Below are positions 41,084-44,532 of a stretch of DNA of 64,000 bases, in pieces. A program made the position numbers and the translations under genes. The DNA is from Escherichia coli (GTDB lineage Bacteria; Pseudomonadota; Gammaproteobacteria; Enterobacterales; Enterobacteriaceae), in the NCBI RefSeq assembly GCF_003334785.1, contig NZ_QOWV01000001.1, one strand, 5' to 3'. Under the pieces are notes generated by a model. The model had not been told where the DNA came from. It made no database searches and was given only the letters and a program-made list of their open reading frames with translations. Position 1 is the first letter of the stretch. Each line of letters starts with the position of its first letter.

Positions 41084-42908
<1,825 letters not shown>

Positions 42909-43050
42909 AGATTAGAAATCCTTTTGAAAGCGCATTGTTATGAGTTTACGCATATGGATTCATCTGGCAAATAAAAACGCGGGAAAAGCACTGGTCAGCG
43001 TCGGGGGTGGGGGTATAATGACCATTCTGTTATTGCATAGAGTAGTTAAC

Positions 43051-43224
43051 ATGAAGCGGAGTAGAACGGAAGTGGGGCGCTGGCGCATGCAGCGTCAGGC
43101 TAGCCGACGTAAATCGCGTTGGCTTGAGGGGCAATCGCGCCGAAATATGCGTATCCACAGCATCAGGAAGTGCATTCTAAACAAACAGCGTAACTCGTTA
43201 TTGTTTGCGATCTACAATATCTAA
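43051..43224 (+). CDS. yciY: small highly basic hypothetical protein (57 aa)
   Basis: ATG-initiated sub-ORF of ORF-track 42940..43224 (MKRSRTEVGRWRMQRQASRRKSRWLEGQSRRNMRIH...); I recall an annotated small gene here, but expression is not demonstrable from sequence. Confidence 0.4.
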   Translation: MKRSRTEVGRWRMQRQASRRKSRWLEGQSRRNMRIHSIRKCILNKQRNSLLFAIYNI

Positions 43225-43278
43225 ATGTACTGGGCACCATTGCGGTGCCCAATAAGTTTACTCTTCCGTCTTTAAACT

Positions 43279-44532
43279 CTATTTTTGCGCCGATTCTTTA
43301 CTGTCAGCTTTCGTTTCTAGTTCATCGTTATCGCTGAAAATACCATGACCTGAGTTCAACAACATTGAAACGAGCATATCATTATTAATCTCTTCACCAT
43401 TTAAAACTCGCGCCAGAATTTCGCTGCCAAACAGTTGCGGTGAGAGAATGATATCCGGATGTACCATCTTAATCTTATTCAGGTTTTTGCTATCACTGAC
43501 GGCGAGAACTGTTTTGACATCACTGCTCATATCTTTTGCCGAGAGTACAACAAACGCGTTATCTGCATCGTTATCACTCAGCGCCAGAATGGCCCGGCAA
43601 CGATCGATTCCCGCTTTCTTTAATACAGAACTGTCATTACTGTCACCGGGGATAACATCAGCATTATCGCCTAAGCGTTGCTCAAGTTGCTTGATATCAT
43701 CTTCAGGCAAGTTGCTGATAACCGTTACGTTTTGTCCGCGTTGATTCAGTTGCAGGATCGTATTGATGGCGAGAATCGAATGTCCGCAAACAATAAAATG
43801 ATCTTTACGATGCATTGTATGATTGTTTCCTTTTACAAGTTTGTTGAATCCCCCGCGGATAAGCGGACCAAAAATTGAGGTCATAGATGTGGCAAAAACG
43901 GTAATGCCGGAAATAATGACCGAAATAGTGAACAATCGTGCTGATTCAGAAACAGGGACAATATCGCCATAGCCGACGGTTGACATGGTTTCTATCGAAA
44001 AATAGAACGCGGTCATCAAACTTTCTATTCGCGGATTAAAACCTTCGCTTAAATAAAGCGCACCGTAGGTTGAGTAAAACAGTAATGTCGTGAAACTAAT
44101 AAATGCAAAAATTGTCCCGGCTGCGGCGCTACTGTGGGAGAAGTCTTTGCGCAGTATCAGCAAAAACACCAGCGTAAAAATGCAAAATCCAATACTAAAT
44201 TTCAGCCAGGGATAAAAATGCAGGGTGTAAATTAGCGCTATCAACAACAAAATGATACTGATTGCCCATGCGAGCTTTGCCCGGAACAGTAAGCCAATGG
44301 AGTTCAGGACAAGAAAGACGCCGAGCATAAAGAGTGGGGCGTTTGCCAGCAAGGAGAGATCCAACTCTGAAAATGCTTTGATATGGAAAATATCAAGCAA
44401 ATTGACCGACATACCATAGATTGTTTTAAAAATAAGCAATCCATTTAAAAAGACGGCCAGCGCGAGAATGTCGTGCCGAAGGGTCACCCATAAATTTGTT
44501 GCTGTTTGTTTGAATGTAGCCCAGTGACTCAC
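43279..44532 (-). CDS. kch: voltage-gated-like K+ channel with RCK/TrkA domain
   Basis: K+ selectivity-filter signature TVGYGD present (SIETMSTVGYGDIVPV); start set at GTG (VSHWATF) for a 417-aa product. Confidence 0.9.
   Translation of the reverse strand: MSHWATFKQTATNLWVTLRHDILALAVFLNGLLIFKTIYGMSVNLLDIFHIKAFSELDLSLLANAPLFMLGVFLVLNSIGLLFRAKLAWAISIILLLIALIYTLHFYPWLKFSIGFCIFTLVFLLILRKDFSHSSAAAGTIFAFISFTTLLFYSTYGALYLSEGFNPRIESLMTAFYFSIETMSTVGYGDIVPVSESARLFTISVIISGITVFATSMTSIFGPLIRGGFNKLVKGNNHTMHRKDHFIVCGHSILAINTILQLNQRGQNVTVISNLPEDDIKQLEQRLGDNADVIPGDSNDSSVLKKAGIDRCRAILALSDNDADNAFVVLSAKDMSSDVKTVLAVSDSKNLNKIKMVHPDIILSPQLFGSEILARVLNGEEINNDMLVSMLLNSGHGIFSDNDELETKADSKESAQK

Follow-up and report, generated by a model that had tools for sequence, protein, structure and literature searches.

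Genetic Organization and Identity of yciY

The window, that is, the whole 64,000-nucleotide stretch of Escherichia coli DNA analyzed in this study, contains a 57-codon ORF with an ATG start codon and a TAA stop codon at 43051–43224 on the plus strand, which is located between two minus-strand genes, cls (41448–42908) and kch (43279–44532), in the gene order oppF, yciU, cls, yciY, kch, yciI, and tonB. Translation of the window confirmed the 57-aa plus-strand frame between cls and kch noticed in a preliminary description of this DNA, and the product, MKRSRTEVGRWRMQRQASRRKSRWLEGQSRRNMRIHSIRKCILNKQRNSLLFAIYNI followed by TAA, is exactly the peptide string given there. The peptide possesses 13 Arg and 4 Lys residues versus 2 Glu residues, with a net charge of +15. 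As the 5 kb around yciY contains 51 ORFs of 30 aa or more, the length of the ORF is no more than chance gives, and the gene is regarded as real because of its conservation and published translation data, not because of ORF length.

The ORF is annotated in RefSeq as yciY, “YciY family protein”, and the supposition in the preliminary description that it carries a y-gene name was therefore right. In the NCBIfam search, the peptide matched NF033701 (“yciY_fam”) with 109.8 bits (E=5e-32; residues 1–55 on a 56-position model), the curated whole-protein cutoff of which is 30 bits, and PF26518 is precomputed on 120/120 yciY homologs among the matches listed. Furthermore, the peptide is identical to K-12 YciY (b4595) as printed in the supplements of two papers. 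The ORF at 43051–43224 is yciY (b4595), the type member of its family (NF033701/PF26518), and the window YciY shows the same sequence and the same place beside cls, with no difference. NF033701 is classed by NCBI as “hypoth_equivalog”, a family without an assigned function, and the preliminary description likewise assigned none. The assignment of the CDS (43051–43224, plus strand) is based on translation, RefSeq annotation, NF033701, codon statistics, start-codon mapping by tetracycline ribosome profiling (TetRP), a chromosomal Venus fusion, Ribo-seq, and AlphaFold2 (AF2) modeling.

A megablast search with the region 42850–43330 found it in 5,423 of 5,426 complete E. coli genomes at identities of at least 95%; three of the 5,423 matched genomes missed 80% coverage, leaving 5420/5426 that pass. 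The feature under the match was “yciY: YciY family protein”, flanked by cls and kch, in every row sampled from these genomes. Thirteen of 5,432 matches to the cls–yciY–kch region were on plasmid-labelled records, and some genomes carried up to three copies; these matches may represent chromids, mislabelled replicons, or duplications.

The gene is already known, having been annotated for years in K-12, with its own NCBIfam and Pfam families and experimentally demonstrated translation, and carries little weight as a discovery because the gene, the families, and the translation are on record. The present analysis adds quantified purifying selection, a map from promoter to terminator, the recognition of cls and not kch as the genomic context, and acid induction taken from published tables, together with negative tests of amphipathic, transmembrane, dimeric, ribosomal-homolog, and RNA-element readings of YciY.

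Promoter, Start Codon, and Downstream Hairpin of yciY

The divergent control region of cls and yciY (42909–43050, 142 bp) holds the predicted promoters of both genes. The predicted sigma-70 promoter of yciY (42992–43019, plus strand) is composed of a −35-like TGGTCA, a 16-bp G-rich spacer, and a −10 TATAAT at 43014–43019, and scored 10/12 in a consensus scan. In an alignment of 20 genera, the TATAAT upstream of yciY is invariant and the CTGGTC/TGGTCA located approximately 16–17 bp upstream of it is largely conserved. Transcription of yciY would start near 43026, with a leader of approximately 25 nt. A weak Shine–Dalgarno-like AGAGTAG (43039–43045, plus strand) is situated 6–12 nt 5′ of the ATG, and the AGAG 9–12 nt before the ATG is kept in most of the 20 genera. 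On the minus strand, the scan revealed a promoter-like site, predicted to be the cls promoter, with TTGCCA at 42970–42965 and TAAACT at 42948–42943. The conserved blocks of the spacer in the same alignment of 20 genera are GAGTTTACGC, TCTGGCAAATAAAAAC, and AAATCCTTTTGAAAG, and the minus-strand conserved blocks match the predicted promoter and the ribosome-binding site of cls.

The yciY frame is open for 37 codons further upstream, to an ATG at 42940, from which a 94-aa product would be translated, and automatic calls of 93–94 aa starting with “MSLRI..LANKN” are found in many Escherichia, Klebsiella, and Trabulsiella genomes. This longer frame was rejected: the ATG at 42940 is not conserved and is often AAG in other genera, in-frame stop codons occur 3–25 codons 5′ of the yciY start in most of 81 loci compared, and TetRP maps the start of the 57-aa product instead (PMC4909307). 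The apparent conservation of “MSLRI..LANKN” stems from the cls promoter, through which the yciY frame runs on the opposite strand, and the longer calls are a recurrent misannotation. A start at Met13, which is used in some gene calls, was likewise ruled out, as residues 1–12 are constrained like the rest of the protein.

Eight nucleotides 3′ of the yciY stop codon lies a hairpin, GGGCACC-ATTGC-GGTGCCC (43232–43250), the stem of which is identical in 20/20 genera, whatever the downstream gene. The motif has one match in the window compared with 0.01 expected by chance, and a repeated element at yciY was accordingly rejected. The hairpin was not called by the terminator scan because E. coli has no clear T-run there, and no covariation was seen in the stem, which is invariant. 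It is likely a bidirectional terminator common to yciY and its convergent neighbor (kch in Escherichia, yciI elsewhere). The stem GGGCAC/GTGCCC is conserved with zero compensatory changes across genera in which synonymous sites are saturated, a degree of conservation beyond the strict need of a terminator; the stem might be under constraint from both sides or might serve as a binding site.

Protein-Level Selection on yciY

A scan of GTDB r220 with one genome per species identified 338 species encoding a YciY relative, the best 80 of which were fetched; they include members of Escherichia, Citrobacter, Salmonella, Enterobacter, Kluyvera, Kosakonia, Cedecea, Buttiauxella, Mangrovibacter, and Shimwellia. 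Altogether, 81 yciY loci from approximately 25 genera, mostly Enterobacteriaceae, were compared, representing 79 distinct nucleotide sequences. All 81 possess an ATG start codon and 57 or 59 codons. The entropies at the first, second, and third codon positions of the 79 distinct enterobacterial sequences are 0.32, 0.20, and 1.08, and those of codons 1–40 are 0.21, 0.15, and 0.98, with third positions approximately five times as variable as first and second positions. Pairwise Nei–Gojobori comparison of residues 1–40 with E. coli gave dN/dS values of 0.02–0.10 where dS was measurable, synonymous sites being saturated in many pairs and near saturation between genera. The pooled pN/pS ratio is 0.15 in the yciY frame and 1.65–2.4 in four of the five other frames; the fifth, an antisense frame that has its third positions in common with yciY, gave 0.32. 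Up to four synonymous codons are used for one and the same invariant residue of YciY, such as CGG, CGT, CGC, and CGA at R12, CGT, AGA, CGA, and CGG at R15, and TCG, TCA, TCC, and TCT at S29. Judged from these substitution patterns, selection at yciY acts on the amino-acid sequence and not on DNA or RNA.

An alignment of 25 diverse members shows 19 invariant columns, and the conserved core motif of the family, EV(G/A)RWRMxRQ...RWLExQSR, is present in the window protein. The variable positions are 6, 14, 17, 18, 22, 27, 37, and the C-terminal third except for L50-L51-F52-A53. At the 5′ end of the gene, codons 2–10 (43054–43080) show third-position entropies of approximately 0.2–1.0 compared with approximately 1.4–1.9 mid-gene, and 71/79 sequences retain AGA, a rare codon, at Arg5. 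This low synonymous variation probably reflects a constraint on translation initiation.

Disruption of yciY is rare in E. coli. In E. coli C3728 (NZ_CP196347.1; L090:3202–4075), a human faecal isolate, an IS1A insertion cuts the gene after codon 40, and the allele, a pseudogene in RefSeq, represents a natural partial knock-out.

At the RNA level, the predicted E. coli yciY transcript is more stable than shuffled sequences (z = −3.75). RNAalifold analysis of 18 genera gave a covariation term of −0.38, with double changes at two pairs in one sequence each, and the main helix of the consensus is formed by two invariant Arg-Trp codon blocks. An Rfam search of the yciY region with E up to 1 yielded nothing but a spurious CRISPR repeat hit. 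A conserved mRNA structure was therefore rejected, given that the low folding energy in E. coli is not conserved and that neither covariation nor an Rfam family was found. As for a leader peptide or uORF, no co-directional gene is present downstream of yciY, the hairpin being succeeded by a convergent gene in most loci. A functional RNA or a purely cis-acting yciY ORF is very unlikely.

Translation and Expression of yciY

Translation of yciY has been demonstrated in published studies. TetRP placed a start site at K-12 coordinate 1306812 on the plus strand, giving exactly the 57-aa yciY product (Nakahigashi et al. 2016, PMC4909307); the site was labelled intergenic, with the remark “New protein (2014) yciY” (PMC4909307). 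In the same study, a chromosomal yciY-Venus fusion (IVP3) served as a positive expression control in LB and minimal medium (PMC4909307). In Ribo-seq data, the RPKM values of yciY were 50–84 at pH 7.6, 79–112 at pH 5.8, and 166–229 at pH 4.4, and those of its mRNA were 104–176, 454–687, and 445–787, respectively, with a translation efficiency of 0.2–0.5 (PMC10746267, Table S3). With mRNA values higher at pH 5.8 and 4.4 than at pH 7.6, yciY mRNA is approximately 4-fold acid-induced. The translation efficiency is consistent with the weak ribosome-binding site described above. In the supplements of a Salmonella small-protein census, yciY was absent.

The preliminary description had left open that the frame could equally be a chance ORF in a promoter region, and had named ribosome profiling, a chromosomal tag, and conservation analysis as checks. 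All three speak for a gene: ribosome footprints are present in the published Ribo-seq data and TetRP maps the start codon, the chromosomal Venus fusion is expressed, and the frame is undisrupted in the 81 fetched loci from approximately 25 genera. The suggestion of a chance ORF is refuted by these footprints, the fusion, and the intact frame, together with dN/dS values of approximately 0.03–0.1.

Genomic Neighborhood and Taxonomic Range

The yciY gene is divergent from cls in 81/81 fetched loci, with a start-to-start spacing of approximately 137–146 bp. In contrast, kch is found 3′ of yciY only in Escherichia, and elsewhere among the 81 loci yciI comes next, either immediately or beyond an insertion. 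Divergence from cls is also kept in four more distant lineages with different downstream neighbors, namely a YnfU-like gene in Rouxiella, an unknown gene of 244 aa together with a bestrophin-like gene in GCA_033863235, yciI overlapping the yciY stop codon in a metagenomic contig, and an Rce1-like gene in GCA_002752595. The conserved partner of yciY is cls and not kch; the placement of the ORF between cls and kch in the preliminary description is thus true of the window, but half of it describes an Escherichia-specific neighbor. As evidence of a functional link, the adjacency of cls and yciY is weak because selection would in any case disfavor breakpoints within a 142-bp region that holds two promoters.

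Among 1.84 billion representative proteins, a filter-only HMM search returned 39 hits, all of which are YciY family members or fragments except for one, P0145, which was rejected as a tandem-repeat artefact. The YciY family has few members, which occur only in Enterobacterales-type contexts. Taken with the evidence on its control region and coding frame, yciY is almost certainly an independent, monocistronic gene confined to Enterobacterales, divergent from cls, with 57 codons between a promoter and weak ribosome-binding site of its own and a hairpin terminator, translated from the annotated ATG and with strong purifying selection acting on its protein. The constraint (dN/dS of approximately 0.05) is strong for a 57-residue protein, and with its own promoter and terminator, its acid induction, and a predicted single, highly charged helix with conserved residues on every face, yciY is among the better candidates of the uncharacterized E. 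coli small proteins.

Homology Searches and Predicted Structure of YciY

In the NCBIfam search, YciY matched only its own model, NF033701; the Pfam-A search gave nothing, the copy used being older and lacking PF26518, and the PHROGs and PADLOC searches gave 0 matches each. A phage or defence origin of yciY was rejected on the basis of the latter two results. In a profile search of the PDB (177,635 distinct sequences, E up to 10), no chain carried the YciY sequence and no hit was significant. The copy searched includes E. coli ribosome entries, so that YciY has not been modeled in these structures as a stoichiometric ribosome component. The best ribosomal similarity, to the N-terminal helices of mitochondrial uS14 (uS14m) at E=0.24 and 0.6, is not significant and is probably compositional. 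Thus, no homology of YciY to any characterized family was found in NCBIfam, Pfam-A, PHROGs, PADLOC, the PDB, or the 1.84 billion proteins.

AF2, run on the 25-sequence alignment, predicted YciY to be one continuous helix at residues 5–56 with a mean pLDDT of 89.9, although the alignment is shallow and long single helices are often predicted by default. The hydrophobic moment of the whole helix is 0.22 compared with 0.17 ± 0.09 in shuffled sequences (p=0.26), and that of the best 18-residue window is 0.54 compared with 0.53 ± 0.11 (p=0.45). An amphipathic membrane helix such as that of AzuC was rejected because these moments are not above those of shuffled sequences. No transmembrane segment of approximately 18–20 residues was found in YciY, the longest hydrophobic run being LLFAI at residues 50–54. 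The invariant residues include an Arg ladder (R5, R12, R19, R23, R30, and R34), W11, W24, E7, E26, Q16, Q28, and S29, and on the helical wheel invariant residues are present in all 40-degree sectors. A homodimeric coiled coil was also rejected, given that a tandem model of two YciY copies joined by a flexible linker, a crude test, lost confidence (pLDDT 58, pTM 0.27) and showed no confident helix–helix packing.

Arginine-rich-motif (ARM) peptides fold upon binding an RNA groove, as represented by lambda N and HIV Rev, whose arginine-rich helices bind RNA grooves. YciY, with 13 Arg among 57 residues, is likewise predicted to be an Arg-dense helix without a globular fold, and resembles lambda/P22 N, HIV Rev, and Tat in being short, with Trp and Gln scattered among the Arg residues and without a globular core. 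In contrast to those peptides, YciY is a free-standing chromosomal protein with a far longer predicted helix of approximately 52 residues, and shows no sequence homology to them. RMF and Sra are small basic proteins that bind ribosomes, and RMF, Sra/RpsV, bL34, and bS21 are similar to YciY in size, basic character, and narrow range. YciY is also alike in its stress-linked expression, here acid induction, but shows no significant similarity to these proteins and is absent from solved structures. The idea of a nucleic-acid-binding or ribosomal-type peptide raised in the preliminary description is accordingly plausible in view of composition and predicted helix, whereas the similarity to ribosomal proteins is not significant. 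AzuC and the single-pass small proteins of E. coli are, like YciY, shorter than 60 aa and were missed for years by standard annotation; YciY differs from them in having no transmembrane segment or significant amphipathicity and a far higher charge of +15.

Possible Function of YciY

Based on the predicted structure and the conservation pattern, it is tentatively proposed that YciY may be unfolded alone and become helical on binding RNA or another polyanion, a model that is the likeliest of those considered here but more doubtful than not. The predicted helix is unlikely to be stable alone because it comprises 52 residues with a charge of +15 and no hydrophobic core, and the free protein would therefore be unfolded. 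Contact with a polyanionic partner could then turn YciY helical. Because invariant Arg, Trp, Gln, Ser, and Glu residues are found on all faces, the partner may envelop the helix rather than touch a single surface, and a single highly charged helix conserved in this manner predicts a specific partner wrapped around YciY. The likeliest partner would be RNA, either the groove of a structured RNA or ribosomal RNA, in a mode like that of ARM peptides and small basic ribosome-associated proteins. YciY would probably act mainly under acid or envelope stress, as its mRNA is approximately 4-fold higher at acid pH. Neither the Rfam search nor covariation in the ORF pointed to a conserved RNA structure nearby that YciY could target; the only conserved structure near yciY is the hairpin after the stop codon, which is most simply read as a terminator.

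The positive charge of YciY equally suits DNA, anionic phospholipid, or an acidic protein. A DNA-binding or nucleoid-associated protein, or a regulator that binds an acidic protein, with a target other than RNA, is rather unlikely: the charge and predicted helix agree with such a protein as well as with an RNA binder, and the strict conservation of residues implies a specific macromolecular partner, but the NCBIfam, Pfam-A, PHROGs, PADLOC, and PDB searches revealed no recognizable DNA-binding fold or motif, and the dimerization needed by most helical DNA binders finds no support in the linked tandem model.

It is unlikely that YciY binds cardiolipin, phosphatidylglycerol, or cardiolipin synthase and is functionally coupled to cls, in which case the Arg/Trp-rich protein could modulate cardiolipin synthesis or mark cardiolipin-rich membrane. 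Such a coupling would agree with the divergent orientation to cls at all loci examined, also those of distant members with other downstream neighbors; the two invariant Trp residues, many Arg residues, and the hydrophobic C-terminal LLFAI resemble features of lipid-binding cationic peptides, and acid induction fits a role in envelope stress. However, the helix is not amphipathic, its moment being no greater than that of shuffled sequences, no transmembrane segment is present, and a lipid-facing surface is hard to reconcile with invariant polar residues on every side of the helix. The pairing itself carries little weight, as described above, since rearrangement between the two promoters is disfavored in any case.

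Returning to the RNA-binding model, a more specific form of it, which is distinctly unlikely, is that YciY is an acid-induced chromosomal ARM protein, the helix of which would insert into rRNA, mRNA, or sRNA, possibly the cls message. If this were true, an ARM-type YciY would, under acid stress, adjust translation or the lipid composition of the envelope, and YciY would be a cellular counterpart of phage N- and HIV Rev-type peptides that is confined to Enterobacterales.

The probability that the peptide itself is irrelevant, the frame being a chance one in the cls promoter, a cis-regulatory ORF, or a dual-function RNA, is virtually negligible, since the many chance ORFs of like length nearby and the folding of the E. 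coli transcript above shuffled sequences are set against a pN/pS ratio far below that of four of the five other frames (and about half that of the antisense frame) at near-saturated synonymous sites, a negative covariation term with no Rfam match, and a hairpin and convergent gene where a co-directional gene to be regulated would lie, and this reading is essentially refuted by codon-position entropy, dN/dS, and synonymous codon use.

Other Features Around cls

In genera without kch beside yciY, a different, shorter K+ channel-like ORF is situated between oppF and yciU, so that a K+ channel gene lies on opposite sides of cls in Escherichia and its relatives. In Salmonella enterica subsp. diarizonae, this ORF (L031:1151–1987, plus strand) encodes 278 aa with a TVGYGD filter and a Cys-rich C-terminal tail. 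The channel-like product is 25–34% identical to Kch, and similar hits at approximately 1250–1900 were obtained in many non-Escherichia loci. The gene adjoining cls on its other side, yciU (41084–41413, minus strand), carries the annotation of a dsDNA-mimic protein of the HI1450 family; it has the same orientation as cls and accompanies it in all loci. A highly acidic DNA mimic and the highly basic YciY are therefore encoded on the two flanks of cls.
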